Virus record (IMG/VR): IMGVR_UViG_3300014208_000023
Location: 288,001-352,000 of that record
From: a virus
Taxonomy: Duplodnaviria > Caudoviricetes
DNA: 64,000 nucleotides
Strand: one strand, 5' to 3'
A model generated the notes under the pieces. The model made no database searches, was not told the origin of the DNA, and was given only the letters and a program-made list of their open reading frames with translations. A program made the translations under genes and the position numbers. Of the stretch, positions 1,561-25,249 are shown in pieces; the first letter of the stretch is position 1, and every line of letters starts with the position of its first letter.

Positions 1561-2437
1561 TTTTAGTTTCTAATTCTTTTAGAATTTTAATTATTGTTTC
1601 TTCATATAATTTATGATCAATATTGTTGGATTTTAATAGATTTTCTTTTGAAGAAAGAGGCCGAAGATTAGATAACGCCCATGCTTTTTTACACTCAATA
1701 TCTTTTATTGATGAATAATTGAAAAAAGAATGAGGAATAATATGATCTAGTTGCCATGTCCAAGTTGATGCGTCATTATCGTCCCAAGTTTTTGAATTAT
1801 ATGTGCTCTGATTTTCCCAAGTCATCCATGCTTCGAAAAGTGATTCTATATGAGTCTTAATTTTTGATGGATAATCTTTTCCAAATATAGATAAGCAGCC
1901 TATGTTGTTTTTTATAGAATTATTTTGCTTAAGCGCTAAATTTATTGCTCTAGACATTATCTTTCTAATTTTATAGGATGGATCTACTTGTCTTCGTATT
2001 TTATTTCTTTTTGATTTTTTAATATTTATTTTTTCTTTATTATTTTGCTGATAAAGCTTAATCTTCTCTTTAATTCTATATTTATTTTCAGAGTATCTTT
2101 TTTTAGATTGTAATATTAAATTTTCTTTATTATTAATATAATATAATTTACTATATTCAATTAATTTATCTCTATTTTCAATTCTATATTTCTTATTTTT
2201 ATTTAAAATTTTATCTTTATTTTTGTTATAATTTTCTTTTTTCTTTTTAGTTAAGACCTTTTTATTTTTTTTTCTATATTGTTTTTGATATATGGATATT
2301 TTATTTTTATTTTTTTTAGAAAAATCTTTCATATATATTTTGCGACAGTCTTTGCACACATTTCGTGTGGCCGCAAAACATTTTTTTGATTTTCTTAATC
2401 CACATGGCCCAGAGCACTTTTTCAAAAAATTATTCAC
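1547..2437 (-). CDS. HNH endonuclease with Lys/Asn-rich N-terminal region
   Basis: CxxC N-terminus, C-terminal WQLDHIIP...NLRPLSSKENLLKSN. Confidence 0.75.
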   Translation of the reverse strand: MNNFLKKCSGPCGLRKSKKCFAATRNVCKDCRKIYMKDFSKKNKNKISIYQKQYRKKNKKVLTKKKKENYNKNKDKILNKNKKYRIENRDKLIEYSKLYYINNKENLILQSKKRYSENKYRIKEKIKLYQQNNKEKINIKKSKRNKIRRQVDPSYKIRKIMSRAINLALKQNNSIKNNIGCLSIFGKDYPSKIKTHIESLFEAWMTWENQSTYNSKTWDDNDASTWTWQLDHIIPHSFFNYSSIKDIECKKAWALSNLRPLSSKENLLKSNNIDHKLYEETIIKILKELETKNGDL

Positions 2438-3209
2438 ATTCTAATGTGTTTTTATTATTAAATATAGAAAAGAGCCAGTCTTTCTCATGCGAGAATAATG
2501 GGAGCTCGTCATTTATAATTAGTTTATGCTTTATCTCTTGGCTTTTAGGATTTAATTTTGGACTTCTATATGCTCCAACCCCTCTTTTAAATGGAAGTGG
2601 GTATGAATTAAAATCAATCTTGCATTCTTCATATAGAATCTCTGATTTTTGTTTCGGACTTTTTCCTGCCAACATTTGCTTAACTTCATCTGAATTGTAG
2701 CGCTTTAGAAGCTCGTAAAAGCACGCCTGCGATAATGCCGTATGAAAGCAGTTTTGCTGCATATGTATTATAGTATTTGTAAGCTCCATTATGCTGGGAA
2801 CCACGAAAGTCTTTGCGGTAAATACGGCATCACCCAAAAGCTTTATGTCTTTTGTGTCCTTAATTTTATTGAACTCTAGGGTGGCTAGAGATGATGCGGC
2901 CGATACTATGGCCTGTATTTTGTTGTTATACCATGCATCCGTGTTAGATGTTTGGTCGTTTCGCATAGCTACCACGATTTGATCATTAAAAGTAAATGCA
3001 AAGATTACACCATCTACTTCTTGACACAACTTTACCATGGCAGCGATCATTAGCTCCATAAAATCAGGAGAGAACGGCTTATCTACCAAAGATGAAAGCT
3101 TTGAAAAAGACCGGCCATTCAAAACAATTACTACTGGTAATCGCTTCATAAGCTGATGATCTGACAATTCTTGATAGGAGTTAATCCTATCTGTTAGAGA
3201 TGCTTCCAT
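2430..3209 (-). CDS. tRNA-His guanylyltransferase (Thg1/TLP)-like protein with degenerate active site
   Basis: SLTDRINSY, RLPVVIVLNGRSF, KPFS, FTFNDQI, FKRG follow TLP layout; RLDG reads VLNG and SDE reads NDQ. Confidence 0.85.
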   Translation of the reverse strand: MEASLTDRINSYQELSDHQLMKRLPVVIVLNGRSFSKLSSLVDKPFSPDFMELMIAAMVKLCQEVDGVIFAFTFNDQIVVAMRNDQTSNTDAWYNNKIQAIVSAASSLATLEFNKIKDTKDIKLLGDAVFTAKTFVVPSIMELTNTIIHMQQNCFHTALSQACFYELLKRYNSDEVKQMLAGKSPKQKSEILYEECKIDFNSYPLPFKRGVGAYRSPKLNPKSQEIKHKLIINDELPLFSHEKDWLFSIFNNKNTLECE

Positions 3210-3228: not shown

Positions 3229-3703
3229 CAGAGCCCAATTTATTAGATATAACCTGACAAATATTAATTACCTCTGATTTAAAAGTGGATGCTTTTGGCT
3301 CAGGAACATCAATATTTGAAACCCTATCTTTTAGATCTGATATTATTTTTTTCATACCATCAATAGAATATGGGTTCTCGTTTGATGATACGACATCATA
3401 TATCCATTTTGATAATGAATATATATTTTTTGTACTATTTGTAAATTGGCTTCCACTAATGCTTGGCGCCTTCCAAGTATTACTGAAATCTAGTTTTCCA
3501 TCAGTAAGAATAAATAAATACTTATTGAATAAGTTTATTACCTTCTCTATATCTTGTGCAAACTCTGGCTTTTTAGAAAAAAGATTAACGCGATAATTAG
3601 GTATTTGCGACAAAGATATCGTGGGAGCCTGCGTATTAACTGTTGGCACGGCAGTTGTTTGGGCTAGCTTCTTCCAAAACTTGATTCTTTCAGAGATTAT
3701 CAT
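3224..3703 (-). CDS. Hypothetical protein
   Basis: 159-aa ORF coupled to ung. Confidence 0.65.
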   Translation of the reverse strand: MIISERIKFWKKLAQTTAVPTVNTQAPTISLSQIPNYRVNLFSKKPEFAQDIEKVINLFNKYLFILTDGKLDFSNTWKAPSISGSQFTNSTKNIYSLSKWIYDVVSSNENPYSIDGMKKIISDLKDRVSNIDVPEPKASTFKSEVINICQVISNKLGSG

Positions 3704-4379
3704 TACCTAAATGCCAGTCTATTGCAGTAAGTCCCTTACTTTTTAGAAAGCCATTGACCGTTGAAAATGGTGAGCTTCTAAAAAACCCACTGTGGGCAGA
3801 AAGAGGAGATGGATGAACCGACTCAATTATGAAATGATTACGATTAGTTATGAGTTTTCTTTTGGACTTTGCAAAATTTCCCCACAAAATAAATACTAGA
3901 TTTTCTTTTTCATCATTAAGCTTTTGAATTACCCTATCAGTAAATTCTTCCCAGCCCTTATCCTTATGACTATTTGATAGTCCTTCACGAACCGTGAGGA
4001 CGCAATTTAAAAGCAATACTCCTTGTTTAGCCCATTTTGTAAGATCACCATTCTTGGAAATTGGTATGTTTAAGTCGTTTTTAAGCTCCTTAAAAATATT
4101 CAAAAGACTAGGTGGTAATGGAAAAGATTCCGGAACGCTGAAAGAAAGTCCTTGGGCTTGGCCAGGATTAATATATGGATCTTGTCCTATAACTACAACT
4201 TTAGTGTTTTCAAAATCACAATGCTTAAAAGCATTAAAGATATTTTCTTTTGCTGGAAAAATATTAAAGGATATTTCTTCTGTCGAAAGAAATTTCGAAA
4301 GATCTCTAAAATATTCTTTTTTCATTTCTTCAACTAAAAGTGTTTTCCATTCTCCCGTGAGCGACATTATTTCATCCAC
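3690..4379 (-). CDS. ung: Uracil-DNA glycosylase, family 1
   Basis: GQDPY, AQGLSFSV, PPSLLNIFKEL, GVLLLN, HPSPLSAH motifs. Confidence 0.97.
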   Translation of the reverse strand: MDEIMSLTGEWKTLLVEEMKKEYFRDLSKFLSTEEISFNIFPAKENIFNAFKHCDFENTKVVVIGQDPYINPGQAQGLSFSVPESFPLPPSLLNIFKELKNDLNIPISKNGDLTKWAKQGVLLLNCVLTVREGLSNSHKDKGWEEFTDRVIQKLNDEKENLVFILWGNFAKSKRKLITNRNHFIIESVHPSPLSAHSGFFRSSPFSTVNGFLKSKGLTAIDWHLGNDNL

Positions 4380-6813: not shown

Positions 6814-7566
6814 TTATTCAAACGGAATAAAAAGTGATTTTCTTTTTTGAACGTAAGCGGCGCAATTCTCCCTAAATTTTGCAAGATTATTTTTGTGACA
6901 ATCAGTTTTAAACTCTCTATATGGGCCAACATCTAGCTCTCCCTGTCCAAAATGTATTCCCATTTCAGGAAGATAAGCCATTTCCCATCCTAATAATCTG
7001 GCCCTAAAGAAATAGTCAGCATCCTCTTCTCCATATTTTCCAAATTCTGTTATAAAATAACCTATTTGGTTATGAAGTTCTCTGCTAAAAACTGTGCAAG
7101 CAGTTCCCAGATTTCCTTGGGTTTTGTATTGAAACGTTTTGCCATGTCTGCTACGTATTGGATATTCTACGCCTTCCATATTCAATCCAACTGCAAACTT
7201 TGGATTAACTGAAAGAATATCTAATGATTTAGATAGCCACCCAGGAACGAATTCAATATCATTATCTAGCGTTGATAGGTATTCATCATTATATTTGGCA
7301 GATGCTTTTAGTCCTTGATTGCGACCAATAGCAATTCCCATATTTTCTTTGTTATAAACAAAGTCTTGACCAACACAATTCTTATTATTCCAAATATTTT
7401 CCTTTAGCCAAGGATCATTTTCTAGCCACTCCACCGTTCCATCAGTAGAGCCGTTATCAACTATAATGAGTCTGAATGGCGAATCAGTATTCTCAAAAAG
7501 GCTCTTGAGCATTCTTTTTGTTAAATCCAGCCTATTATAAGTAACAATCATTAATGATGTTGTCAT
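6814..7566 (-). CDS. Glycosyltransferase family 2
   Basis: IVTYNR, IVDNGSTDGT, LDNDIE, YGEEDADY; start at 7566 by ATGA overlap. Confidence 0.9.
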   Translation of the reverse strand: MTTSLMIVTYNRLDLTKRMLKSLFENTDSPFRLIIVDNGSTDGTVEWLENDPWLKENIWNNKNCVGQDFVYNKENMGIAIGRNQGLKASAKYNDEYLSTLDNDIEFVPGWLSKSLDILSVNPKFAVGLNMEGVEYPIRSRHGKTFQYKTQGNLGTACTVFSRELHNQIGYFITEFGKYGEEDADYFFRARLLGWEMAYLPEMGIHFGQGELDVGPYREFKTDCHKNNLAKFRENCAAYVQKRKSLFIPFE

Positions 7567-7934
7567 TTGCACATCTTCTTTATTGTCTTAAGGGTCTCGA
7601 TAAAACTTTCTGCCTGTAGTTTTTTAAGCTCAATTTCTTTGTCTTCTAAAGTCGAAATTCTAACCTTGAGATGGTGTTCGTCTTCGTTTATAATTTGGTC
7701 CGCGCTTAATTCTTCAATTTTAGCACACAATTTATTAAACGTAGTTGTTTTTATGAAATCAACTTTAGATTTGGCAAAATCTTTAATCTCTTTAAGATTA
7801 TTGCTCATAAGAATGAATGTAGCCATTCTTTCTACTTCTGGATATCCTACTTTATTAGGAACAAAAACTCTATATATCGGTTCGGCCACAAGCCCGCAAA
7901 TAAAAGCGGTTGCTATAAATATTAAATCAATCAT
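7563..7934 (-). CDS. Hypothetical protein with N-terminal hydrophobic segment
   Basis: LIFIATAFICGLVA then coiled-coil-like C-terminus. Confidence 0.6.
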   Translation of the reverse strand: MIDLIFIATAFICGLVAEPIYRVFVPNKVGYPEVERMATFILMSNNLKEIKDFAKSKVDFIKTTTFNKLCAKIEELSADQIINEDEHHLKVRISTLEDKEIELKKLQAESFIETLKTIKKMCK

Positions 7935-7954
7935 TGCGCACCATTTATAAAATG

Positions 7955-8875
7955 TTAGTTTGCTCTGTTTTCAACAAACCATTTGTAAGTTTTAGCTATT
8001 CCGTCTTCTAGAGACGTTTCTGCCTTAAGCCCAATTGATTTTAGTTTAGAAACGTCCAACAGTTTTCTTGGTGTTCCGTCAGGCTTGCTGCTATTATATG
8101 TGACTGGCCCTTCGTAACCGACAACTTTCTTTATCAAAATCGCCAAATCGTTAATGGTCATATCCTCACCGACACCAACATTAATGAGATCCGGTATGTC
8201 GTCCATAAACAATGTTTCTTTTACTATATTGGCCAGATCTTCACAATACATAAATTCTCTTCTAGCTTTTCCAGTTCCCCATAATTCTACGGACTCTGAA
8301 CCATTTACTTTAGCTTCGTGAATTTTTCGCAGTAAAGCCGGCAACACATGAGAATCTTCCAGATCAAAACTATCACCGGGCCCATACAAATTGGTGGGCA
8401 TTAATGAGTAGCCGGGAAAATTATATTGCCTACAATATGCTCTTATCATTTGCACTCCGGCAATTTTGGCAACAGCATAAGCGTCATTAGTAGATTCTAA
8501 TGGTCCGGTTAGAAGATATTCTTCTTTAATTGGTTGAGGGGCAAATTTTGGATAGATACACGACGATCCAAGAAAACAAAACTTTTTGCAACCATACTTT
8601 CTAGCTGCCTCTATTGTATTTACGGTTATTTGTAAATTCTGCCTAATAAAATCTCCCTGATAAGTAAAGTTTGCCATAATACCGCCAACCTTTGCGGCGG
8701 CCATTACAACATAATCAGGATGGTATTCTTTGAAAAAATCCTCTACTTGAGCTTGATTGGTTAAATCAAGCTCTGATCTAGATTTAGTAATGATATTATC
8801 ATAGTTAGATTTTTTAAGACTGCGCACTACGGCAGATCCTACCATCCCATTATGGCCCGCTACGTAAATGCTCAT
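7955..8875 (-). CDS. fcl: GDP-L-fucose synthase
   Basis: GHNGMVGS, AAAKVGGI, LGSSCIYP, YAVAK, PTNLYGP, SHVLP, REFMY, PDGTPRK. Confidence 0.95.
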   Translation of the reverse strand: MSIYVAGHNGMVGSAVVRSLKKSNYDNIITKSRSELDLTNQAQVEDFFKEYHPDYVVMAAAKVGGIMANFTYQGDFIRQNLQITVNTIEAARKYGCKKFCFLGSSCIYPKFAPQPIKEEYLLTGPLESTNDAYAVAKIAGVQMIRAYCRQYNFPGYSLMPTNLYGPGDSFDLEDSHVLPALLRKIHEAKVNGSESVELWGTGKARREFMYCEDLANIVKETLFMDDIPDLINVGVGEDMTINDLAILIKKVVGYEGPVTYNSSKPDGTPRKLLDVSKLKSIGLKAETSLEDGIAKTYKWFVENRAN

Positions 8876-9873
8876 TTTTTATTTAGTAAATAAAGTTCTT
8901 TTTCAGCCAATTCCATATCATATTGAATCATCTCATCTACCAGCATTTGGAATGAAAACTTTGGTTCCCAACCCAGCTCTTTTCGTATTTTGGAAGAATC
9001 TCCGCATAGAGCATCCACTTCGCTTGCTCTAAAGTATTTAGGATCTATTTCAACATAGTTTTTGTAATCAAGCCCCAGATGAGAAAATACCATCTCAACA
9101 AACTCTAGAACTGAATGCATCTCTCCGCTAGAGATAACGTAGTCTCCAGGATTTTCAGCAGTTATGATTTTAAACATTCCGGCAGCTACGTCCGATGCAT
9201 GAGACCAATCTCTTTTGGCGTCTAGATTTCCTAGATATAGTTTTTCTTGTAGCCCTAGTTTTATACGAGTTGCCGCTCTAGTTATTTTTCTGGTAACGAA
9301 GGTTTCTCCTCGTCTAGCGCCTTCGTGATTGAAACTGATGGCGTTACTGGCATGCATTCCATAAGCTTCTCTGTAGTTTATGGTGGCGTAGAATCCGGCC
9401 ACCTTTGCCACTCCATACGGAGACCTTGGGTGAAATGGCGTTGTTTCACTCTGTGGTGGATTTTCAGATCCAAACATTTCGCTGCTTGAGGCCGTAAGGA
9501 ATCTGGTTTTGGGACTACATTTCCTAACTGCCTCCAAAACTCTCATTACTCCGGTTCCTGTAACGTCCATGGTATAAACTGGAATATCAAAACTTACCTT
9601 AACGTGAGATTGCGCTCCCATGTTAAATAACAAATCTGGCTTAATATCTCCTATCCAGCTAGATAGTGATGCATAATCAGATAGGTCTCCATATGTTAAT
9701 TCTAATTGCGCATCCGAATGCGGATCTTGATAAAGATGGTCTATTCTCTCCGTATTTAGAGAGCTACTTCGACGCTTTAATCCATGAACCTTATAGCCTT
9801 CTTTTAGAAGAAGTTCGCATAGATATGATCCCGTCTGTCCAGTAACGCCAGTAATGCAAGCAGTTTTAGTCAT
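8872..9873 (-). CDS. gmd: GDP-mannose 4,6-dehydratase
   Basis: ITGVTGQTGSYL, AQSHVKVSF, ASSSEMFG, PRSPYGVAK, FNHE, ETFVTRKI, LGNLDAKRDW. Confidence 0.97.
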   Translation of the reverse strand: MTKTACITGVTGQTGSYLCELLLKEGYKVHGLKRRSSSLNTERIDHLYQDPHSDAQLELTYGDLSDYASLSSWIGDIKPDLLFNMGAQSHVKVSFDIPVYTMDVTGTGVMRVLEAVRKCSPKTRFLTASSSEMFGSENPPQSETTPFHPRSPYGVAKVAGFYATINYREAYGMHASNAISFNHEGARRGETFVTRKITRAATRIKLGLQEKLYLGNLDAKRDWSHASDVAAGMFKIITAENPGDYVISSGEMHSVLEFVEMVFSHLGLDYKNYVEIDPKYFRASEVDALCGDSSKIRKELGWEPKFSFQMLVDEMIQYDMELAEKELYLLNKK

Positions 9874-9928: not shown

Positions 9929-10183
9929 TCATTTTTTACCATATATTTTGGTCGATCCCTGCCCATATAGTTTTTGTGCCTCTCCGGTTTTAACCATATG
10001 ATTTATCTGCTCGTCTATCTGCTGAATAAGATCATTTCTCTGCTGGTTTGCTATGTTAGTAAGGCGAGTGGCATCTGCAATCTCCTTATCTGTAGCGGAT
10101 TTATTCCTCTTAATATCTTCGGCCATCCATATTCTTATATTGGTTACTGATAAGCTGTCAATTAGATTTCCAATAGTAGTCAT
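9929..10183 (-). CDS. DUF4254-like small helical protein
   Basis: TIGNLIDSLSVTNIRIWMAED...NQQRNDLIQQID pattern. Confidence 0.6.
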   Translation of the reverse strand: MTTIGNLIDSLSVTNIRIWMAEDIKRNKSATDKEIADATRLTNIANQQRNDLIQQIDEQINHMVKTGEAQKLYGQGSTKIYGKK

Positions 10184-10977
10184 TGTTTCCTAGTTTTGAA
10201 TTGTTCGATGTCTTCTTGCGTATCATTTAGAAGGTCCCAATACGTATATTCCCAATTTACGGATGGGGTAATCCATTTTGTATTAGTTGGCGGAGTGCTT
10301 GTATCTTCATTAACAAGATCGTGATATTCTAAACCGTTCATTTCGTATAAATCTTGCACGAAGTTTCTAACATTAAACGCCATTCCGGCCCCAACCATAC
10401 AATCTTCGATCTGCCCTATGCTTTTGCTTACGACAAATTTTGTATGAACCATATCTCGCTCGAAGTCCAAATTACCAACACTAATTTTTTCATTATTTAC
10501 GATCGATCTAAATATCTTTCCAAATAGGAAATACTTGCTTCTATACGTTGAATTGAAATAGAATGGGTGAATAAATATAACTTTTTTGTATAGATCGTTT
10601 AATTCACGAAGTTCTTTAATTTTATTTAAGAGAAGTAGTTTAGAAATCGCGTATTCATTTTTAAGATCGAAATTTGGTTCCGTATCTAAAGATATTACTC
10701 CCTCCCCAAACCCTCTCCACAATTCACAACTGGTGTAGCACACTATCTTTTTGGAGTTTTGCAGAAGGGCTTTGATTATCTTTAGTGTGTTCAGATAATT
10801 CGGAGTGATATAGTCAATGTTCTTTTCGTATATTCTCTGCTCGGCAAAAGTAATATATACAGAGTCCCATTGATTTTGTTTTAAATAATTGAAGTCAATA
10901 TTTCTGGAGGAAATTTTGACATAATCATCCGGAAAATACTGGGCTAACTGGGACGAACTTCCTATCACTAAATCCAC
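10180..10977 (-). CDS. Atypical NAD-dependent epimerase/dehydratase (SDR)
   Basis: Degenerate GSSSQLA glycine motif, YAISK (YxxxK), RDMVH. Confidence 0.7.
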   Translation of the reverse strand: MDLVIGSSSQLAQYFPDDYVKISSRNIDFNYLKQNQWDSVYITFAEQRIYEKNIDYITPNYLNTLKIIKALLQNSKKIVCYTSCELWRGFGEGVISLDTEPNFDLKNEYAISKLLLLNKIKELRELNDLYKKVIFIHPFYFNSTYRSKYFLFGKIFRSIVNNEKISVGNLDFERDMVHTKFVVSKSIGQIEDCMVGAGMAFNVRNFVQDLYEMNGLEYHDLVNEDTSTPPTNTKWITPSVNWEYTYWDLLNDTQEDIEQFKTRKQ

Positions 10978-12194
10978 TAGACACCTATAACTTCAAATTT
11001 CGGGCAGGGGACTATAAAACGACCACCTGCTAACAAATAATCCTGTTCTCTGCTGACAAACTCATTTATAAAATGCCAAGGCAATACTAGTAAATAATCT
11101 GGCTTTGCTCTACGCATCTCATCTTCAGAGTAAATCGGTATATTTGTTCCTACCGTTTTAAGCCCAAACTTATAGGGACTACGCTCGGCAATTCCATCGA
11201 TTAACGTGTGGTCAAGTCCAAAATATTGCAATAGGGTATTTCCTTTGGTGGAGGCGCCATAACCCCAAATAGTCTTGCCTTTGGCCTTCTCTTCTTTTAT
11301 AAAGAATACGGTTTTTTCTTTCAAAGATTCTATATCATTGTAAAACGATATCCAGGTTTCAGCTTGGTCTAATTTCAAAGTTTTTTCATATGCCAATAGA
11401 GAATCAACTCTCATATTGCAGATGTCTCTATATGGTTGAGAAGAAAATGTTTTTTCATCACCAGATTGTTTCATCGTATAAATTCTAAATGACCCGCCAT
11501 TAACATCATTAAGCTGGCAGTCCATAACTTTAAACCCATTTTTTTCTAGCAAAGCTTTTAAATTAAAAAGAGAATAGTAATAAATGTGTTCGTGACAGAT
11601 ATTATCAAAAGCCATTTGTTTAATCATTAATGGCGTATAGCTTAATTGAAGAACCCAAATGCCATTATCATCCAACACTTCTCCGATATCACGAATAAAT
11701 GAGTCTGGGTCTTCCAGGTCATAAAACATAGCTATAGAGGTTATTACTTTCGCTTTTAATCCGCCAAACTTACATTTTTTAAATGTATTAGCGCTAAAGT
11801 AATCTTGAATAATTAAATTGGAATGTTTTTGTGACTCGGCTTTATATGAATCATCTACCGGATCTATTCCAACTCTGATTAGGTCAGATGGTAACCACGA
11901 AAGAAGCGTTCCGTCATTACAAGCAATATCTATCCAAAGATCATTTTCTTTAAGTTTTTTTATTTTAAGAATGGAATCAACTATATCTTTTAATTCTTGT
12001 TTCATAGAAGAATTAATGCCGCTACGATACCAATATGTTCCATACATAGTATTTAACGGAGCTGATTTGGAAAGCTTAACGTTTCCATCATCAGTTAGCA
12101 ATAGTTTCATTTCAACCTTATCGCCCCGTGGTGGCTGGTTGTCTTTTATAAAGTCAGAAACATATAGGTCGCCTAAAGTAAAAAGCTCTTTCAT
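10977..12194 (-). CDS. NDP-sugar C-methyltransferase
   Basis: YWYRSG, DIACNDGTLL, SIAMFYDL, DNICHEH, GYGASTKGNTLL, LPWHF. Confidence 0.92.
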   Translation of the reverse strand: MKELFTLGDLYVSDFIKDNQPPRGDKVEMKLLLTDDGNVKLSKSAPLNTMYGTYWYRSGINSSMKQELKDIVDSILKIKKLKENDLWIDIACNDGTLLSWLPSDLIRVGIDPVDDSYKAESQKHSNLIIQDYFSANTFKKCKFGGLKAKVITSIAMFYDLEDPDSFIRDIGEVLDDNGIWVLQLSYTPLMIKQMAFDNICHEHIYYYSLFNLKALLEKNGFKVMDCQLNDVNGGSFRIYTMKQSGDEKTFSSQPYRDICNMRVDSLLAYEKTLKLDQAETWISFYNDIESLKEKTVFFIKEEKAKGKTIWGYGASTKGNTLLQYFGLDHTLIDGIAERSPYKFGLKTVGTNIPIYSEDEMRRAKPDYLLVLPWHFINEFVSREQDYLLAGGRFIVPCPKFEVIGV

Positions 12195-13807: not shown

Positions 13808-14623
13808 ATGAAAAAAATAATAAGCTACTCTTTGTATAATTCTATTCCAAAGAACACGATAAATGCCATCATCAACTGTATGTTGGTGCCTAAAATATAC
13901 CCAGGCTGGATAGCAAGATTTTATATAGATGATACTGTGCCAAAGCCTATTGTGGATATTTTACGAACTTTTGACTATGTTGAAATAGTTGAAATGCCAA
14001 GGGGAACTGGAAGTGAGCGTATGTGCTGGCGGTTCCTCCCAGCGGCAGACTATAATGCAATAATGATATCACGTGATTGCGATAGCTGGATTAGTTCAAG
14101 AGAAAAAGTTTGTGTCGATGCTTGGTTAGCTAGTGATAAAAACTTTAGTATTATTTATGATCACTGTTATCACACGGACTCAAAAATTAAAATAATGGGT
14201 GGCGTGTGGGGCTCAAGAAATGGTATCATTCCAAAGATGGCCGAAGAAATTGATAAGTTTGTAAATGCTGGCCAAACTTATGACCAGGGCCTATTATCAT
14301 CCGTAATCTATCCAAACATTACGCATACCGTCATGATTCATTATGGTGACCCTCAATATAATAATAAGGGGGAACGAATTCATCGAGGCAGCGAACTTGG
14401 AGGAGTTCCAATTCCGCCCTATGAAGAAAACGACGAGCCAATTCCTGGCCTTTCATTTAGACGCGTTAATAAGTTGAATGAATTTTTCTGCGCTCACTGC
14501 AAAAAACATCATGACGTTTTCATTGGTGGCATTATGGAACATATTCCAGAAGATGCTATGCAGGTTGTCAGAAATTACGCTAAAGAAAAGGGAATTTCAG
14601 TAGAAAATTGTCCTGGCTTCTAA
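13808..14623 (+). CDS. Putative glycosyltransferase-like protein
   Basis: IISYSLY, YPGW, WRFL, SRDCDS (DxD), MGGVWG, DQ motifs. Confidence 0.6.
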   Translation: MKKIISYSLYNSIPKNTINAIINCMLVPKIYPGWIARFYIDDTVPKPIVDILRTFDYVEIVEMPRGTGSERMCWRFLPAADYNAIMISRDCDSWISSREKVCVDAWLASDKNFSIIYDHCYHTDSKIKIMGGVWGSRNGIIPKMAEEIDKFVNAGQTYDQGLLSSVIYPNITHTVMIHYGDPQYNNKGERIHRGSELGGVPIPPYEENDEPIPGLSFRRVNKLNEFFCAHCKKHHDVFIGGIMEHIPEDAMQVVRNYAKEKGISVENCPGF

Positions 14624-15393
14624 TAAAAATACTTCAAAAACAAATCCATTCTTAATTTATGCCCCTCAGCAAATGAGGGGAAATAAGAATTCCATTGAGA
14701 ACCAGCCATATAATGGTAGAACCCATTAGCAACCCAGCCGGCACTTAATCCATATTTGCCACATATAAATAAATCATCTCTAAAATACTGTAAGAATGGG
14801 GTATCTTTGGCTGTGCTAATATAATTTAATATTTGGCTATTTTCCAGAAACTTAACTTTTTCTGGATTACTTTCAATAAAGTATCTGGTTTTCCCACCAC
14901 AATCTAGTCCTGGCTCTAATCCAAAATCTATATTTTTAGGATTTTGTAGAAGAGCCATATTAATGATCGTAAATGCTGGGTAGAAATAAATAATTCCTTT
15001 ACCATCCAATATTTTATATTCAGTTGTGCTTGCCGCAATATTGTTTCCTATAATATTTGAAACATTAATATCTTCTATTGGAAATACATCAGTATGAAGC
15101 AAAATAATAATTTCACAATTATTTTTAACGGCATAGTCTTGTACTGCCCAATTTAAAGTGGCAGCATATCCTTCTGAAGGATTTTGAATCTTATGAATAC
15201 TTTGCGGAACTCTCACGCAATTAATTTTATTATAGGAGGTCACCAGATTTATGGCCGCTTCCATCTCCGGATCCATTGCATCATTAAATAATACAAAATC
15301 AAAATCTTCTTTCATATACTTTTGAAATTGTCTATACATTATATCAATTGGAAACTTATCATTGACAGCAAAAGAGAAAACGGATATTTTCAT
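14620..15393 (-). CDS. Putative GT-A-like protein
   Basis: LLHTDVFP, LDCGG, YHYMAGSQW; glycan cluster context. Confidence 0.5.
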   Translation of the reverse strand: MKISVFSFAVNDKFPIDIMYRQFQKYMKEDFDFVLFNDAMDPEMEAAINLVTSYNKINCVRVPQSIHKIQNPSEGYAATLNWAVQDYAVKNNCEIIILLHTDVFPIEDINVSNIIGNNIAASTTEYKILDGKGIIYFYPAFTIINMALLQNPKNIDFGLEPGLDCGGKTRYFIESNPEKVKFLENSQILNYISTAKDTPFLQYFRDDLFICGKYGLSAGWVANGFYHYMAGSQWNSYFPSFAEGHKLRMDLFLKYFY

Positions 15394-16289
15394 ACAAGCT
15401 CCATAGAATTAATAGTTTCTTGAAGACCGTCCTTCAAAGAAGTAAATGATATATTTGGCATTATTGTTTTTAAGTATTGATTGCTTACGGTTTTCTTTAA
15501 ATTTCCATCAGGCTTACTGGTATCAAATTTAATTTGATGTTTGAAATTGACTATTTCGCCAATCGTAGTTGATAGGTCTGCAATACTAATTTCTTCGTCA
15601 CCGCAACAAATTACTGGTTTTGTGTCGAAATAAACATATACCAATTCTTTTATTATTGAGGCTAAATCTTTAGAATAAATAAACTGCCTTAATGGCTTGC
15701 CGGCACCACTCATTATGACATCAGAATTATTTTTCTCTGCATCTTTAAACTTATTAATTAAGTTTGGTATTAACCTACCAGAAGACATATTGTCATTTGG
15801 GCCATAGATATTTGACGGTATTATTCCAAAGTATTTTCTGCCATATTGAGTGTTATAATTTTGGCACTGTAGCTCAAGCATTCTTTTTGAAAACGCGTAT
15901 CCGGCAAAAGCTCCGGTTAAATTGCCTTCAAAAATCATAGACTCGTCCATAGGAAATTTTGATGGAACTTCTGGAAACATATTGACTGAAAGGCAGCACA
16001 TTACATTTTGAATATTAGATATATTGGCTGCCTCTAATACGTTTTCATTTATTCTAACATTTGTTGAGAACGAAGAAACTCTATCTATATTGTAGAAGCC
16101 AGGAACATATGATGCCAAATGAACAATATAATCTGGCCGCATCTCATTTATAAAACCAATAGTCTGCGATCTTTCCGTTAAGTCACAATCTTTTCTATTG
16201 ATGAATATCCAATTATTTTCACCTGAGCACATAGACTTTAGCGCGCTTCCTACGCAACCATCACTTCCAGTAACTAAAATACGTTTCAT
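15390..16289 (-). CDS. GDP-fucose synthase-like SDR paralogue (probable reductase)
   Basis: VTGSDGCVG, HLAS, YAFSK, PSNIYGP, LRQFIYSKDLA, KPDG; epimerase Cys and His positions read N and R. Confidence 0.85.
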   Translation of the reverse strand: MKRILVTGSDGCVGSALKSMCSGENNWIFINRKDCDLTERSQTIGFINEMRPDYIVHLASYVPGFYNIDRVSSFSTNVRINENVLEAANISNIQNVMCCLSVNMFPEVPSKFPMDESMIFEGNLTGAFAGYAFSKRMLELQCQNYNTQYGRKYFGIIPSNIYGPNDNMSSGRLIPNLINKFKDAEKNNSDVIMSGAGKPLRQFIYSKDLASIIKELVYVYFDTKPVICCGDEEISIADLSTTIGEIVNFKHQIKFDTSKPDGNLKKTVSNQYLKTIMPNISFTSLKDGLQETINSMELV

Positions 16290-17488
16290 GGCTTGTAGCT
16301 CAACAATATATCAACCAGATCATCCACTAGATCGGCCGACATTAAATTGCTTGGAAGACCTATAAAACACCCTCTATAGTGGCATTTCTCGGCCCCTTTA
16401 AAATCAGCCGGATTTAATTCAGGATAAAGATCCTTGATGACTGGCTGCCTAACCATATTGCCGGTTATTATTGGCCTATTTTCGACGCCTTTGCTTGAAA
16501 GATAATCTAAATAATCTGATAGCTTAATGTTTTCATCCAAAAACATAGTTACTCCAAACCACGCAATATCGCCATTATCTATTTCTTTTGGAAATGAAAT
16601 AAAGCTACCTCTTGGATCTGCTTCTATTTTTGACTTTATATTGCTATAGTTTATTTTCCTATTTTCGTTTTTAGATTTTAATTTATATAGCTGATGCACG
16701 CCCATCGCCGCCTGTATCTCCATGGGCCTGACGTTATATCCTAGATTTACGAAAGTAAATCTTGGGTCTATGTCCGGAAACTGTTCCTGAATTTCATTCT
16801 TATTCTTTAGGCTCCTAGACCAACCATGGGCACGCAGACACTTTATGAGCTCATAATCCTCATCGTCATCACAAACTACCATTCCGCCTTCCATAGTAGT
16901 TATGTGATGTGAATAATAAAATGAATATGTGGCAAAGGTTCCAAAAGTCCCCAGGTATTTGCCATCATATTTGGATCCTAGGCTTTCACACGTATCCTCT
17001 ATTAAAATAAGATTGTGGCGCTTAACTATATCCATTAATTTTCTCATGTCGGTGGAGTTTCCTAGGACATGAACCAACATAATGGCTTTTGTTTTTTCAG
17101 TTATTTTCTTTTCTAGATCCTCTAAATCTATATTTAGAGTTTCAGGATCTACATCGACAAACACTGGAACTAGATTGCACTGAACAATTGGAAAAATACT
17201 TGTAGACCAACACAAGGCCGGAACAATAACTTCATCGCCCGGCACAAGCTTATTGGCTCTTTTGTAGTTAGTTAAAGCGGCTACGGCTAACAAATTGGCG
17301 GACGAACCAGAATTAACCATAACTGCATGTTTAGCACCAACATATTCTGCGAACATATTTTCGAATTGGCTTACCTGCTCACCCATAGTGAAGTTTCCGG
17401 TAAGCAATACTTTAATCATATTTAAAATATCATCAGTATCGTGAGCGTTCTGTCCCAATGGGAACTTCATAATTAACGGTGATTTCAT
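16286..17488 (-). CDS. colD: PLP/PMP-dependent GDP-4-keto-6-deoxymannose 3-dehydratase, ColD-like (DegT/DnrJ family)
   Basis: NSGSSANL, WSTS, EDTCES, SFYYSHHITTMEGG (His in place of Schiff-base Lys), RAHGWSR, GYNVRP; no E1-type Cys cluster. Confidence 0.8.
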   Translation of the reverse strand: MKSPLIMKFPLGQNAHDTDDILNMIKVLLTGNFTMGEQVSQFENMFAEYVGAKHAVMVNSGSSANLLAVAALTNYKRANKLVPGDEVIVPALCWSTSIFPIVQCNLVPVFVDVDPETLNIDLEDLEKKITEKTKAIMLVHVLGNSTDMRKLMDIVKRHNLILIEDTCESLGSKYDGKYLGTFGTFATYSFYYSHHITTMEGGMVVCDDDEDYELIKCLRAHGWSRSLKNKNEIQEQFPDIDPRFTFVNLGYNVRPMEIQAAMGVHQLYKLKSKNENRKINYSNIKSKIEADPRGSFISFPKEIDNGDIAWFGVTMFLDENIKLSDYLDYLSSKGVENRPIITGNMVRQPVIKDLYPELNPADFKGAEKCHYRGCFIGLPSNLMSADLVDDLVDILLSYKP

Positions 17489-18552
17489 AGTTGGCTCTTA
17501 AGGCTGGTAAGAATTTCTTGCCAGTTATTATAAACTGAAGATCTTCTCAAGATATTGTGTTGGGACATATTATAGCTAATTTCGCTAGTATTTACGGTAT
17601 TTAATAAGTGAGATAGGTGAGATGGTGAATCAAAATATTGAATATATTTCATATTTCCTTCGTCGTAAAAATCACAGGTATCTATCCATTTATTTAAAAC
17701 CTCTGGGTTTCGAAGACTATTTGGATTATTTATATCTTCTGGCTCTTGCGCCTTACCTACTCTATAAAAAGTAAGGTCAGCAAATGCTTTGTTTTGATGA
17801 AACAATTCTTTTAAATAGGATTTAGATGGGAAAAATAATGGAACGTTAGCCGTATATTGCTCGAACGTAGACATTGTTCCATTGTGATATGGAATATGAA
17901 TTATTCCTTTATAACTATATAGATCTGCCCAGCTATATTTCCAGTTGCCGTTTCTTATTGCGCCAAGACTGACACACGAATTTCCAGGAACAGATATCTC
18001 TGATCGATCATGTATAACGAACTGATTTTTTGTTCCAGTATATTTGGCATTTGTATATTCGCATAAGTTTGGAATATGCATGCCAGTAATTCCAGTCATA
18101 TATTTAGTGTAATATTGGTCTCCTTTATTATTGCAAACATAATAAAGTTTTCCAGATGCAGCTCTTTCTTTTAGAAAGATATTTAATCTATCTCTAATTG
18201 CTAGATTGAAAGTATTGGGATGGTCATATCTAATACAATTAACAACTATAATTGGTTTATTAAATTTTTCATATAGAAGAGCGAATTCAGTAGGATAGCA
18301 CGCAATGAAGCCATCATATTTGCTTAATTCTTCTTTATTTGCCTCATAGAACTTATCACAAACTTCTTGCGTGCATACTCCAGAACAAGTTAATTGCGTT
18401 CCATCACTTAATTTGATATTTGGTTTAGGCTTATTTAAAACCCAGTGATGACCGGATAGCGACCAATCATCAACTTCATGGCCCAAATTTTTGAAAATAT
18501 GAGCCACATCTGCTATGACTGAAACGTGCTGGTCTATGTTGAAAAATTTCAT
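17485..18552 (-). CDS. Putative glycosyltransferase-like protein
   Basis: MSTFEQYTANVPLFFP resembles GT-B nucleotide-binding segment; cluster context. Confidence 0.5.
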   Translation of the reverse strand: MKFFNIDQHVSVIADVAHIFKNLGHEVDDWSLSGHHWVLNKPKPNIKLSDGTQLTCSGVCTQEVCDKFYEANKEELSKYDGFIACYPTEFALLYEKFNKPIIVVNCIRYDHPNTFNLAIRDRLNIFLKERAASGKLYYVCNNKGDQYYTKYMTGITGMHIPNLCEYTNAKYTGTKNQFVIHDRSEISVPGNSCVSLGAIRNGNWKYSWADLYSYKGIIHIPYHNGTMSTFEQYTANVPLFFPSKSYLKELFHQNKAFADLTFYRVGKAQEPEDINNPNSLRNPEVLNKWIDTCDFYDEGNMKYIQYFDSPSHLSHLLNTVNTSEISYNMSQHNILRRSSVYNNWQEILTSLKSQL

Positions 18553-18567
18553 ATATCCTAAATATAA

Positions 18568-19413
18568 TTATACTGCTTCAGAAGAGGTGTGAAAAAGCCG
18601 AATACCTATTTGCGTTTTGTTTTCTAGAAAATACATCTGCACATCAAACCCATTACTAAATGGCTTAATAGTATTATACAAAGTATATGGCGAAAACCAA
18701 TACTTATGATCTGGATGAACCATTTCTAACGAAAACTCATCTGAACAAAAAATTTCCGCAACTGCCATACACGGAACAGTGAATAAATATTCTTTAGCTT
18801 TTACTGAAAAAATATCTTTTAAAAATAAATCTACATTTGGAACGTGCTCCATTACTTCAGGAACTATGACAATATCATATTCTTTATCAACATCCTTATA
18901 TGACGTAAAGTATGTTCCTGGGCAGGCCTGTTTTAGCTTATTTGTGGTTTCAACATCAATATCCAGACCGTCTATTCGCGTATTTATTCTTTTTTTAAAT
19001 TCAGAATAAGCTATTTCTGCAAGAGAAGATGCAAGCTCTGCCTTGGCGAGCGCTTCATTTCCAACGGCCTGTTCTGGCGTTACCTTCGCTCTTTCTTTAG
19101 TTCTTTCTATTTTTGCCTTATCTACTTTCTCTTTAAGAACTATTTCTTCTTCGGTCTTCATGTCCTTAAGTTTAGATAAGAATATATGCAAATTAGATTC
19201 CACATTAAAAACCATAGTGTCAGCGCATCCTACATGTAGGACTGTTTTGCCCTGACATAAATTTCCAATAAATTCAAATCTAGAATGTCTGATATTTTTC
19301 AGATGCATTTTTTGTATATAAAAATTATCAGTAGCCTCGTATGTTTTACGGGCAATTTTAACTGGTGCTTCTGGTGCTTCGATAACTTCTAGCTGCATAT
19401 TTTCTCCGGTCAT
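18568..19413 (-). CDS. Class I SAM methyltransferase with helical insertion
   Basis: VLHVGCAD, GLDID, EVMEHV, HPDH; ~60-aa charged insert. Confidence 0.75.
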   Translation of the reverse strand: MTGENMQLEVIEAPEAPVKIARKTYEATDNFYIQKMHLKNIRHSRFEFIGNLCQGKTVLHVGCADTMVFNVESNLHIFLSKLKDMKTEEEIVLKEKVDKAKIERTKERAKVTPEQAVGNEALAKAELASSLAEIAYSEFKKRINTRIDGLDIDVETTNKLKQACPGTYFTSYKDVDKEYDIVIVPEVMEHVPNVDLFLKDIFSVKAKEYLFTVPCMAVAEIFCSDEFSLEMVHPDHKYWFSPYTLYNTIKPFSNGFDVQMYFLENKTQIGIRLFHTSSEAV

Positions 19414-20129
19414 ATTTTAATCCATTCTGGTGGTAAAAGGTCTTTTGTGTTATGTTGTAGTGCCGGCCCAAACCAGGTACTTGGTGCCAGAACTTTTTTA
19501 TTTTCGTTTTTATTTAGCCAAGCTCCCCACCAGCTAAAGCTACTGTTGCATATAATATTGCTTTCGCATGTTTTAGCCATCAAAGCTAAATCTATTGCCG
19601 GCCCATTTCCCTCAGAATATTCGTATTGATTTCCTACGAAATTTCTTTTGGCCCAGTCCATATCATCAGATAGAATCAAAAATTTCTTGCACCCACTCAT
19701 TTCCATTGCTTTTGAATAATAATCCATACTCATAAGTGGATGACAATTTTGAAAATTAAGGTAATCACCTCTTCTTATATGAAGAGAACACAATCCCTCT
19801 TCTCTTTCAAACTTATAAATTGGAGTTAATGCTTTAGCTATTTCTTCTTTATTATTTTCAAAGTATTTCCAGGATTGGAAATATCCTATTAAATCCACCG
19901 AATTAGACGCTGGGATTTCATCATAATGAAATGCTTTTTCCTGATAAGTTTTAGATACGGCTATATTTGATGAAAAACAATTATGCAAATTAAAGTTAGG
20001 TTCATATTGCCAAGGTGGAAACTGATAATCCGTATTGTTTTTAATAGCAGTAGATATAGTGGTAGCTATCTGGAATAAACAATTCCCTAACCTACCCATC
20101 TTTCCTAGCTGTGAAAACGTAACTGTCAT
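19410..20129 (-). CDS. Alpha-1,2-fucosyltransferase, GT11 family
   Basis: GRLGN, GYFQS, HIRRGDY, SDD, NSSFSWWGAWL. Confidence 0.93.
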   Translation of the reverse strand: MTVTFSQLGKMGRLGNCLFQIATTISTAIKNNTDYQFPPWQYEPNFNLHNCFSSNIAVSKTYQEKAFHYDEIPASNSVDLIGYFQSWKYFENNKEEIAKALTPIYKFEREEGLCSLHIRRGDYLNFQNCHPLMSMDYYSKAMEMSGCKKFLILSDDMDWAKRNFVGNQYEYSEGNGPAIDLALMAKTCESNIICNSSFSWWGAWLNKNENKKVLAPSTWFGPALQHNTKDLLPPEWIKI

Positions 20130-22504: not shown

Positions 22505-25249
22505 ATGGCCACAAATTATCCTACCCATATTGACGACACCTCTAGCTTGCCAGTTGTGGCTGATAACGTACATAGAGTAGATTCTGATGTTATTAATCGA
22601 TTACGGGCCGCAATTATAGCCGTTGAATCTGAATTGGGCACAAAACCAAGTGGAATATATGGAACCGTAACTAATCGGCTTGATGGGTTTGAAACTCTAA
22701 TTAATTCGATCATTAGCGCCGGCGTTGCTAGCAGCTTTACTGCTGCCGGCGATTTAAGCGGGAACTCTACTAGCCAAGTAGTTATTGGCTTACGTGGAGT
22801 TTCAGTAAGCTCTACGGCACCAACAAATGGTCAAATATTATCATATGATGGATATTCTTGGAAAGCTAAGGGGCCACAAACTCCAGTTGTTACACAGGAA
22901 GCTTGGTTCATAGATCCAGTTAGCGGCAACGATTCCAATAGCGGACTTACTTCTGGAACGGCTCTAAAAACTCTTGCGGAAATGTATTCTCGCTGGGGTC
23001 CGGCTCCAAAGCTATTAGCATCTGTTTCTGGATTTATTACCGTAACACTAATGAGTGCTCCGGGCATAAATGACCCCATTATTTTGAGCGGAGATCTTGG
23101 TCCAGACACGAATTTAATGTATAAAGGAGCGGCATCTACCGTTAGATCTGGAACTTTTAGTGCGGTAACTGCACTTAATTCAGCAACAAATCAAGCGTGG
23201 GAAGTTGATGATAGCGCTAGAGATTGGACTACGGATCTAAATAAGCGCATTAAAAATACGACTGCCGGAGCAAATCTTGGACAAGTAGCCTGGGTAGCTA
23301 AAAGCATAGGTGGAACATCTGCCAGAATATCGCAGCCGGCATTTATTGATGCGGCCACAATACATGGATATACCGGGCCAACAGTTGGAGTATTCTCCAC
23401 TAGCGACACTTATATAGTAGAAGATATTACGGAGGCTTATTTAGCAAGCGTTATTCGCGTAGGCCGTTTCGAAGGCAATGAATTAGTTCACCCTGGTAGG
23501 GTATTTTTTCAGGATATTTATTTTAAAAATTCAGTTGGCGGAACACTAATTCAGCAGTGTGCTTCTTTAGTATTTTTGGGTTGTCGTTTTGATAACTCAT
23601 ATCTTGAGCATGCATTAGCTCCTGCATTTATGAATTGTAATTTGGGTAATGGTATTGGCATCTTTGAATCTGAAATGTCAACAATTACAGGAATGATTGC
23701 GGGAGATATGAATATAGCTTCTGGCAGTAAAGTATATATGCAAAATTGGCTGGTTCAGGGCGCGACCATTTATTTATTTGGTGGAGATGTAGTTCTTACT
23801 GGAACTTTAGGAATTTTTGATTCTGCCGCAGACGCGATCAACGTTGGATATGCTAGTTACGGCAAAGGGTCTCTTGATGCTGGGCTAGCTTTGTTTGGAA
23901 GTGGCAATGCTGGGCATGGAGTTAATATTGGCCCACTAGGATCATTAGCTTATGCTACAACCCCTACAATTACTGGAACTGCCGGCAACGTTGTTATTGA
24001 TGGAACATCGCTAACATGGAGAACGGCACCGCAAATTTTTAGTGGAACAAACAATTCTACGAGCACCTTTTCAGTAGGTCCAAACCCCGCTCTTACTGGC
24101 GATTGTTTGCGCCTTGGACCATCCATAGCTAATGCTGGCGTATATAACAATGTAATAACCACTCGCATCAATGGTGCAGATGCTACCGTCGTCAGAATTC
24201 ATGACGGCGCCTCTTACATCATGCTGGGAGATACCGGCTATTACATGACGCTACAAGGCTATAATAACGTGTTCGCTTCCAATGCGTTAGGCATTCACGA
24301 GTTCATAATTGGAGCTGCTGACGCAATGCAACTTAATGCTAACGGCGTTCAGATTGGGCCAGGCGCTTTTGATCTTGGCGGTGGAACTGGTGTAATCGGA
24401 ATTGATGACGCGGCCGTTGTTCCAACAACCAATCCAACAGGCGGAGTAGTTCTTTATTCTGAAACGGGGGCACTGAAATTCAGAAACCCAGCAGGCACAA
24501 TAACAACACTTGGTTCAGGCGGATCTCCAGGCGGTTCTGATACGTATATTCAATTTAATGATACTTCTACTTTTGGTGGCGATGCTGGACTTACCTATAA
24601 TAAAACCACAAACGTTCTTTCATTAACCGACGCTATTGCTATTGGAGCAATACCTGCATCTGCGGGCTCACTGCGATTAGCAACCAGTTCTATTATAAAC
24701 TATCGCAATGCATCCAATACTGGAGACGTTCAAGCACTCAACTGTGATGGTTCGTTTGTGTATGTCGGAGATGTTAGTCGCAATGATTCTGGATTATTGC
24801 TATATTCTGGTGGTAGTGTTGCCATTAATGCAACTGGTGACGTTGTGCTTGGGTATGGCACGCCAAGATTAACTGCCACTACTACCAATATTCTTTCTAC
24901 ATTTCCACTTATTGGTGATAGCGCCAACACTTCGCCATACGGTGTTCATGGAGGAGTAATTGTTACTCCAGCAATAGACGCTGCCGTAACACTAGTGGCA
25001 GCAGAATATAACTTCGATTGGATTCAAGTTGATACCGGCGCTTGGGCGACTGGCCCATTTGGGGTTATTTTTCCAACTCCAGCCACAAAAGCCGCGGGTT
25101 TTTATAAAACTGTTTTTAACAATTCGACGCAAACAATAACGGTGCAAAATGGCGGAGTAGCAACCAGAACTCTTACTACTGGACTTGGCCAGAGATTTTG
25201 GTTTGATGATGGCGGCGCGTTTTTTGCTGGGGCAACATTTACTCCATAA
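22505..25249 (+). CDS. Virion structural protein, tailspike/fibre-like
   Basis: 914 aa G/T/A/S-rich; WFIDPVSGNDSNSG motif typical before beta-helix domains; GGSDTYIQFN fibre-type segment. Confidence 0.6.
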   Translation: MATNYPTHIDDTSSLPVVADNVHRVDSDVINRLRAAIIAVESELGTKPSGIYGTVTNRLDGFETLINSIISAGVASSFTAAGDLSGNSTSQVVIGLRGVSVSSTAPTNGQILSYDGYSWKAKGPQTPVVTQEAWFIDPVSGNDSNSGLTSGTALKTLAEMYSRWGPAPKLLASVSGFITVTLMSAPGINDPIILSGDLGPDTNLMYKGAASTVRSGTFSAVTALNSATNQAWEVDDSARDWTTDLNKRIKNTTAGANLGQVAWVAKSIGGTSARISQPAFIDAATIHGYTGPTVGVFSTSDTYIVEDITEAYLASVIRVGRFEGNELVHPGRVFFQDIYFKNSVGGTLIQQCASLVFLGCRFDNSYLEHALAPAFMNCNLGNGIGIFESEMSTITGMIAGDMNIASGSKVYMQNWLVQGATIYLFGGDVVLTGTLGIFDSAADAINVGYASYGKGSLDAGLALFGSGNAGHGVNIGPLGSLAYATTPTITGTAGNVVIDGTSLTWRTAPQIFSGTNNSTSTFSVGPNPALTGDCLRLGPSIANAGVYNNVITTRINGADATVVRIHDGASYIMLGDTGYYMTLQGYNNVFASNALGIHEFIIGAADAMQLNANGVQIGPGAFDLGGGTGVIGIDDAAVVPTTNPTGGVVLYSETGALKFRNPAGTITTLGSGGSPGGSDTYIQFNDTSTFGGDAGLTYNKTTNVLSLTDAIAIGAIPASAGSLRLATSSIINYRNASNTGDVQALNCDGSFVYVGDVSRNDSGLLLYSGGSVAINATGDVVLGYGTPRLTATTTNILSTFPLIGDSANTSPYGVHGGVIVTPAIDAAVTLVAAEYNFDWIQVDTGAWATGPFGVIFPTPATKAAGFYKTVFNNSTQTITVQNGGVATRTLTTGLGQRFWFDDGGAFFAGATFTP

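Follow-up and report, generated by a model that had tools for sequence, protein, structure and literature searches.

The 64,000-nucleotide stretch analysed here (the window; positions 288,001 to 352,000 of virus record IMGVR_UViG_3300014208_000023) carries an island of sugar genes in which a predicted 3-dehydratase of the ColD type, P0001, is coupled to a partner enzyme from among the short-chain dehydrogenases/reductases (SDRs), SDR2. 3,6-Dideoxyhexoses are rare and strongly antigenic sugars, found chiefly in bacterial O-antigens; to our knowledge only five occur in nature, colitose being made by a GDP route and the other four by CDP routes.

A predicted dehydratase and a predicted reductase in a chain of four genes

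Overlaps of 4 nucleotides chain four genes of the island, given here in their order of reading with coordinates of the window:

17485..18552, minus strand: conserved protein of 355 amino acids, its gene upstream of that of the dehydratase and overlapping it by 4 nucleotides; without a match in Pfam or NCBIfam
16286..17488, minus strand: P0001, 400 amino acids, predicted ColD-type (His-for-Lys, iron-sulfur-free) nucleotide-sugar 3-dehydratase dependent on pyridoxal or pyridoxamine phosphate; Pfam, PDB, alignment, tree
15390..16289, minus strand: SDR2, 299 amino acids, SDR of the FX/GMER type, predicted C-4 ketoreductase, 4-nucleotide overlap with the dehydratase; Pfam, PDB alignment
14620..15393, minus strand: conserved protein of 257 amino acids, 4-nucleotide overlap downstream of SDR2; no Pfam or NCBIfam match

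Relatives as distant as 70% identity share this arrangement, and in relatives the gene for the 355-residue protein always precedes the dehydratase. The overlaps, the shared arrangement and the natural dehydratase-SDR fusions described below speak for a coupling of P0001 to SDR2.

Between 16286 and 17488 the plus-strand translation is full of stops, and it is the minus strand that holds the open frame of P0001, with possible starts at Met1, which would overlap the preceding gene at ATGA, or at Met7, where relatives of 394 amino acids begin. P0001 is the sole DegT gene of the genome. Pfam DegT_DnrJ_EryC1 (PF01041) matches its residues 18-386 (E 3e-89), and at 300 bits the assignment of the fold is not a matter of chance. 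A preliminary description, made from the letters of the sequence, had noted the motif SHHITTMEGG (residues 193-202) with His at the position of the Schiff-base Lys, the motif RAHGWSR (residues 219-225) and a lack of iron-sulfur cysteines; all of these were borne out, on the minus strand. The best PDB match of P0001 is ColD from E. coli O55 (2gms, 288 bits, about 40% identity), followed by E1 from Yersinia (3bcx, 228 bits) and then by perosamine synthases (Per, 167 bits). A blastn search of the P0001 gene against E. coli genomes gave no match.

References for the alignment and the tree were taken from annotated E. coli chromosomes (O55 ColD and ColC, O157 Per, ArnB and WecE), ColD having been located by searching the O55:H7 chromosome at the protein level in all six frames. 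To these we added four E1 orthologues, whose scores on the RfbH equivalog model are 617-712 bits and one of which scores 564 bits against 3bcx. In an alignment anchored on a hidden Markov model, both ColD of E. coli O55 and E1 have His in the column of P0001 His194, where the E. coli aminotransferases Per, ArnB and WecE have Lys. Solved structures of the ColD mutants H188N and H188K differ from wild type at the column of the first His in the SHH of P0001 and so fix the register, making His194 the counterpart of ColD His188. Two large protein searches supplied 268 relatives, of which 266 have His in this column. The DegT fold, and the aminotransferase labels that relatives bear in public records, would suit a sugar aminotransferase making a GDP-4-amino-4,6-dideoxy sugar such as perosamine, but with the Schiff-base Lys gone from P0001 and nearly all of its relatives, and kept in Per, ArnB and WecE, we consider that activity extremely improbable. 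The solved ColD variants that do carry Lys at position 188 are engineered mutants, and the Lys variant is one that gains aminotransferase activity.

The second enzyme from which P0001 must be distinguished is E1 (RfbH/DdhC/AscC, CDP-6-deoxy-L-threo-D-glycero-4-hexulose 3-dehydrase, 3BCX), which likewise has His in place of Lys and shares with the predicted reaction of P0001 the same C-3 deoxygenation chemistry as far as the enamine intermediate. E1, however, has a [2Fe-2S] cysteine motif and requires a reductase (PMC8987622). Its iron-sulfur loop (Yersinia E1, CYCAPGCDNTC; the orthologues used here, CWCDPGRDNTC) forms an insertion that is not present in P0001, and the E1 motif C-x57-C-x-C-x7-C does not occur there either. 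A C-x-C-x(6-9)-C pattern occurs within the dehydratase domain in only 1 of the 268 relatives, near the N-terminus and off the E1 loop, and a second match to the pattern falls in an N-terminal extension. On the RfbH/E1 equivalog model NF011936, P0001 scores 310 bits, below the cut-off of 423. With ColD (WbdK; E. coli O55 and Yersinia pseudotuberculosis; 2GMS) P0001 has in common the DegT fold, the catalytic Ser-His-His, RAHGW-R, the lack of an iron-sulfur cluster and a Gmd in the same locus. ColD-type enzymes are well established and belong to the textbook (review PMC8987622), and the motifs, alignment and database scores support the prediction that P0001 is an iron-sulfur-free 3-dehydratase of this type, neither an aminotransferase nor an E1.

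SDR2 scores 134 bits on Pfam Epimerase and 167 bits on the Fcl model, which requires 500. Its best PDB match is human GDP-L-fucose synthase FX (4B8W, 211 bits), with E. coli GMER at about 124 bits, and it is a clear homologue of GMER/Fcl and ColC that retains the Ser-Tyr-Lys reductase triad (Ser107-Tyr136-Lys140; LS..., YAFSK). GMER epimerises by means of a pair of residues, Cys109 and His179 (PMC2279256). Unlike in GMER/Fcl and ColC, this pair is lacking in SDR2 and its phage clade: the alignment with human FX places Asn at position 109 and Arg at position 179 (motifs L-S-V-N and G-R), where the phage's own Fcl, E. coli ColC and all the canonical ColC and Fcl proteins of twelve loci have S-S-C and S-H. 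Among the 99 closest homologues of SDR2 (50-100% identical), position 109 is never Cys (0/99) and mostly Asn (89/99), and position 179 is Arg throughout (99/99); the next 21, at 45% identity or less, all have both Cys and His. Because the SDR partners of the nearest non-phage relatives also retain Cys and His, the loss of the epimerase pair appears specific to the phage lineage and conserved since it occurred. SDR2 is thus predicted to be a C-4 ketoreductase devoid of epimerase activity.

P0001 relatives in phages, giant viruses and bacteria

To the references we added 80 named genome loci and computed a quick IQ-TREE phylogeny (LG+C20) with support from the Shimodaira-Hasegawa-like approximate likelihood ratio test (SH-aLRT). 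The tree contains three separate groups, E1 (SH-aLRT 100), canonical ColD (99) and a group with the phage sequences that we call clade B (100), whose branching order the quick tree does not settle. By synteny the canonical ColD clade unites E. coli ColD with the gmd-colC-colD operons of many bacteria. The preliminary description took P0001 for a ColD-type enzyme, distinct from aminotransferases and from E1, and proposed a phylogeny as the check: P0001 indeed groups with neither E1 nor the aminotransferases, in line with the PDB ranking, His194 and the missing Cys loop, but it also stands apart from the biochemically characterised ColD, so that membership of the canonical clade does not hold. 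P0001 further differs from ColD in having no gmd-colC-colD operon and in a partner SDR without the epimerase pair.

The sister of the phage clade is P0122, a natural dehydratase-SDR fusion of 718 amino acids, the pairing receiving support of 99 and 87 in two trees. Its dehydratase part is 59% identical to P0001 and its C-terminal SDR domain 49% identical to SDR2, and on its contig a Gmd homologue follows directly. In the nearest non-phage relatives (L093, L099 and L100) a Gmd homologue with 41-49% identity to that of the phage lies no more than one or two genes away, and so does an Fcl-like SDR in L099 and L100. P0130, a more distant fusion in clade B, shares its contig with Pox_A22, PCNA, TFIIB and RNA-polymerase domains, which mark the contig as that of a giant virus.

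Clade B is varied in architecture and in surroundings. The giant-virus contig L095, which has NCLDV hallmark domains, carries two fusions (7367-9055 and 10001-12151), a dehydratase-SDR of 716 amino acids and an Fcl-like SDR joined to a GT11 glycosyltransferase (562 amino acids). Many of the dehydratases (P0118, P0124, P0125 and P0128; about 520-580 amino acids) have an N-terminal extension of 120-190 residues without a Pfam match, one extended dehydratase bears a GT2 fragment, and P0127 consists of two tandem DegT domains. Single-cell genomes of Pelagibacteraceae (L015, L016, L020 and L024) encode His-type dehydratases of clade B with 44-49% identity, and neither Gmd, Fcl nor ColC lies within 8 kb of them. 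An RmlD/GalE-like SDR of 283 amino acids comes after the dehydratase in L015.

Relatives of P0001 were found by tblastn in 86 phage records, 54 of them from Synechococcus phages. Synechococcus phage ACG-2014f (NC_047712, 5050-8167), a cyanomyovirus of about 217 kb and not a megaphage, has an operon of Gmd, an Fcl-like protein and then directly a His-type DegT protein, annotated as "nucleotide-sugar epimerase" twice and as "aminotransferase". Its dehydratase resembles P0001 in the His type, with a GHH motif, and in the absence of a Cys loop; it differs in being only 35% identical and in its Fcl-like partner, which retains the His (GSGHVLA). Most likely this operon encodes a 3,6-dideoxy-sugar pathway under wrong annotation, in a group of cyanophages that has been cultured.

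The sugar island and its predicted product

The remaining sugar genes of the island, which is mainly on the minus strand, are the following:

7955..8875, minus strand: GDP-L-fucose synthase-like protein Fcl with an intact Cys/His pair (SSCIYP and SHVLP motifs); NF047922 435 bits (cut-off 500)
8872..9873, minus strand: GDP-mannose 4,6-dehydratase Gmd; TIGR01472 451.5 bits (cut-off 415), Pfam GDP_Man_Dehyd 414 bits
10180..10977, minus strand: short atypical SDR-like protein, 265 amino acids; Gmd models match it only weakly (22.6 and 29 bits)
10977..12194, minus strand: sugar C-methyltransferase-type enzyme, also found in the islands of relatives; Pfam Methyltransf_14 (156 bits) and Methyltransf_23
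19410..20129, minus strand: GT11 (fucosyltransferase-family) glycosyltransferase; Pfam Glyco_transf_11 72 bits
20126..22459, minus strand: methyltransferase-GT2-GT6 fusion; Pfam Methyltransf_11, Glycos_transf_2 and Glyco_transf_6

Gmd lies 6.4 kb from P0001. We take the substrate of P0001 to be GDP-4-keto-6-deoxy-D-mannose, since the island encodes a Gmd above its model's cut-off, Gmd also stands beside the dehydratases of the nearest relatives, and the genome has no GmhA-type gene. The phage Gmd would make this compound from GDP-mannose of the host. By analogy with ColD, pyridoxamine phosphate bound in P0001 would form a Schiff base with the 4-keto group, His194 would take a proton and the 3-hydroxyl would depart; hydrolysis would then give GDP-4-keto-3,6-dideoxy-D-mannose and ammonia. 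Glutamate would recharge the cofactor, a scheme that calls for neither an iron-sulfur cluster nor a reductase partner for the dehydratase. SDR2 would then reduce the 4-keto group without inversion at C-5, and the flanking transferases would use the resulting GDP-3,6-dideoxy-D-hexose.

A product of the D-series is expected because L-colitose requires inversion at C-5 and SDR2 has no epimerase pair. We therefore put at about 0.55 the probability that the ColD-type P0001 and the non-epimerising SDR2 together make a GDP-3,6-dideoxy-D-hexose, of the D-arabino (tyvelose) or the D-lyxo configuration, and not GDP-L-colitose. There is a precedent for such a pairing in the GDP-3,6-dideoxyheptose pathway of C. 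jejuni HS:5/HS:11, where a PLP-dependent (pyridoxal phosphate-dependent) ColD-like C3-dehydratase is followed by a separate C4-reductase (Ghosh, Xiang and Raushel 2023, PMC10440746), much as the phage dehydratase is paired with a separate predicted C4-reductase. Acting without the epimerase on the 3,6-dideoxy-4-keto-heptose, the C4-reductases gave D-arabino and D-lyxo products in vitro (PMC10440746). The C. jejuni pathway differs from that of the phage in its heptose substrate, its cupin C5-epimerase and its dehydratase, which belongs to the canonical clade (62-67% identical to ColD). The phage has Gmd, and neither a GmhA-type (SIS) heptose gene nor an RmlC-type cupin epimerase was found in its genome. 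A heptose substrate was rejected on the score of Gmd, above the GDP-mannose dehydratase cut-off, and on the lack of a GmhA-type SIS gene.

The preliminary description had proposed a colitose-type pathway in the phage, noting that Gmd, ColD and ColC give GDP-L-colitose and that some GT11 enzymes transfer colitose. Parts of that proposal stand, for P0001 is of the ColD type, the island has a true Gmd, as do the surroundings of the nearest relatives, and Fcl and GT11 are present in it; the ColC part is not supported, as the SDR adjacent to the dehydratase, with Asn and Arg in place of a pair kept by every canonical ColC and Fcl that we examined, should not epimerise C-5 and hence should not yield L-colitose. 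GDP-L-colitose might still arise if the separate Fcl (7955-8875) also takes the 3-deoxy intermediate, or if SDR2 epimerises by other means, with GT11 transferring the sugar. The Fcl does retain its Cys and His and is related to ColC (in related loci, 39% identity to that of E. coli), a GT11 gene is found with about 14 of the 80 ColD-like genome loci, mostly canonical operons, and the Cys and His of the nearest non-phage SDR partners imply that the ancestral module was probably colitose-like. We nevertheless regard colitose as an unlikely product: the dehydratase gene has its physical coupling with SDR2 and not with Fcl, the loss of the pair in 99/99 close homologues points to a fixed functional change and not to decay, and the Fcl scores as a fucose synthase (435 bits), with 33-39% identity to ColC-type enzymes.

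The C-methyltransferase at 10977-12194 could branch a 4-keto intermediate. Were the 3-deoxy-4-keto intermediate C-methylated by this TylC3-type enzyme before reduction, a branched sugar of the 3,6-dideoxy type would result, and it is true that a Methyltransf_14 gene occurs in every related phage island that we read and near a bacterial clade B dehydratase (L094), and that the short SDR of no assigned role adjoins the gene. The C-methyltransferase lies, however, 4 kb from the dehydratase with two plus-strand genes between them, and it could equally act on the product of Gmd, the activity of its family on GDP-sugars being putative. We accordingly give the branched sugar only a small chance, below that of colitose.

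Elsewhere in the genome are genes for other sugar nucleotides. An RmlA-like sugar-1-phosphate nucleotidyltransferase (PF00483 135 bits, rmlA_long 156 bits and under the cut-off) is the sole NTP_transferase of the genome and adjoins a weak RmlD-like SDR, the two at window 3-620 (minus strand) and genome 286.7-288.6 kb. Two RmlB-like NDP-glucose 4,6-dehydratases are encoded at genome 125703-126671 and 191377-192327 (335 and 343 bits, cut-off 365). From these genes the phage appears to have at least two further deoxysugar routes. They could supply P0001 with dTDP- or another NDP-4-keto-6-deoxyglucose, as the near-threshold scores of the RmlB-like proteins and the absence of a nearby Gmd from some clade B loci might suggest, but the RmlB-like genes are 110-180 kb away, and Gmd is in the island itself and adjacent in the nearest relatives. 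Such a substrate seems to us very improbable.

Several points nevertheless weigh against a GDP-linked D-series product. P0001, whose dehydratase activity is itself a prediction, as it is for the other members of clade B, is only about 40% identical to the characterised ColD and falls outside its clade. Arg at position 179 of SDR2 is still a basic residue, and some unrecognised base could replace the Cys. The Fcl of the same island, its pair intact, might epimerise the 3-deoxy intermediate. The RmlA- and RmlB-like genes described above are present in the same genome. The clade B members of Pelagibacteraceae and of locus L013 have no Gmd within 8 kb, so the substrate may vary across the clade. 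Finally, the trees are quick searches that carry SH-aLRT support only.

As to where the sugar is used, the two uncharacterised genes of the chain offer some leads. The nearest Atlas clusters of the 355-residue protein are labelled glycosyltransferase and Uroviricota (scores 0.98), and it is possibly a phage glycosyltransferase; its fold model, with a predicted local distance difference test (pLDDT) score of 48, was too poor for use. For the 257-residue protein, which is conserved in three of the loci (L002, L103 and L104), a model of low confidence (pLDDT 57.5, predicted template-modelling score 0.61) gave top Foldseek matches that are all GT-A transferases (template-modelling scores 0.3-0.4), a weak lead towards a fold like that of GT-A glycosyltransferases. 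On the plus strand at 22505-25249, divergent from the island across a 45-bp spacer, lies a gene for a Gly/Ser/Thr-rich protein of 914 amino acids without a PHROG match; it may be a fibre, and the island transferases might act on it. A more far-reaching picture, in which the pair makes GDP-3,6-dideoxy-D-arabino-hexose (GDP-tyvelose) or its D-lyxo counterpart, unreported in nature, for display on a virion protein such as this fibre-like one, with the module perhaps exchanged between megaphages, which infect bacteria, and the giant viruses of eukaryotes, is tentative and on balance doubtful. Just upstream, two genes on the minus strand adjoin the sugar island, one for a Thg1-family protein (2430-3209; tRNA-His guanylyltransferase domains) and one for a protein of the uracil-DNA-glycosylase family (3690-4379).

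A lineage of huge phages

The virus record is 428,320 bp long and has direct terminal repeats; its genes are tightly packed, with 4-nucleotide overlaps in the window, and its replication genes find their matches among phage families. A protein of 613 amino acids (genome 229524-231365) carries the only hallmark of tailed phages confirmed by sequence, a large-terminase ATPase domain of the GpA type (52.5 bits against a cut-off of 25.6). On these grounds we accept the record as that of a tailed phage, even if for most structural genes there is no match. The Terminase_6C and Terminase_6N profiles had no match in the genome, and neither had the Capsid_NCLDV profile, for which the control was equally silent, so that its result carries no information. 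A PHROGs search of ten large open reading frames matched no structural family, and searches of phages by tblastn with two large open reading frames, and by megablast with the 19-kb sugar island, gave no match. A scan of IMG/VR with single-protein patterns recovered no relative.

Close relatives of P0001 (64-89% identity) lie on contigs of 83-467 kb, several of them longer than 400 kb, which indicates a lineage of huge phages; the contigs of the lineage are given as 412-467 kb. Two further proteins of the phage may be mentioned here. One, of 389 amino acids (window 44422-45591, minus strand), matches PHROG 1211 (E 3e-63), the family of PurZ-type adenylosuccinate synthetases from phages whose DNA contains 2-aminoadenine, and hints at modified DNA in this phage. 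The other, of 1005 amino acids (genome 200616-203633), contains about 20 collagen triple-helix repeats (Pfam Collagen 204 bits).

Phage-encoded His-type relatives of P0001 are already known in the sense that they sit in public records, and we found no description of a virus-encoded colitose or 3-dehydratase pathway in open-access papers and preprints. What is particular to the present case is the separate clade, the tie to dehydratase-SDR fusions, one of them on a giant-virus contig, and the fixed partner that keeps only the reductase residues. A ColD-like dehydratase fixed to a non-epimerising reductase predicts a GDP-linked dideoxy sugar of the D-series, and the labels "aminotransferase" and "GDP-fucose synthase" on such genes of phages and giant viruses are probably wrong. 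These findings point to a sugar-making module common to giant viruses and huge phages.

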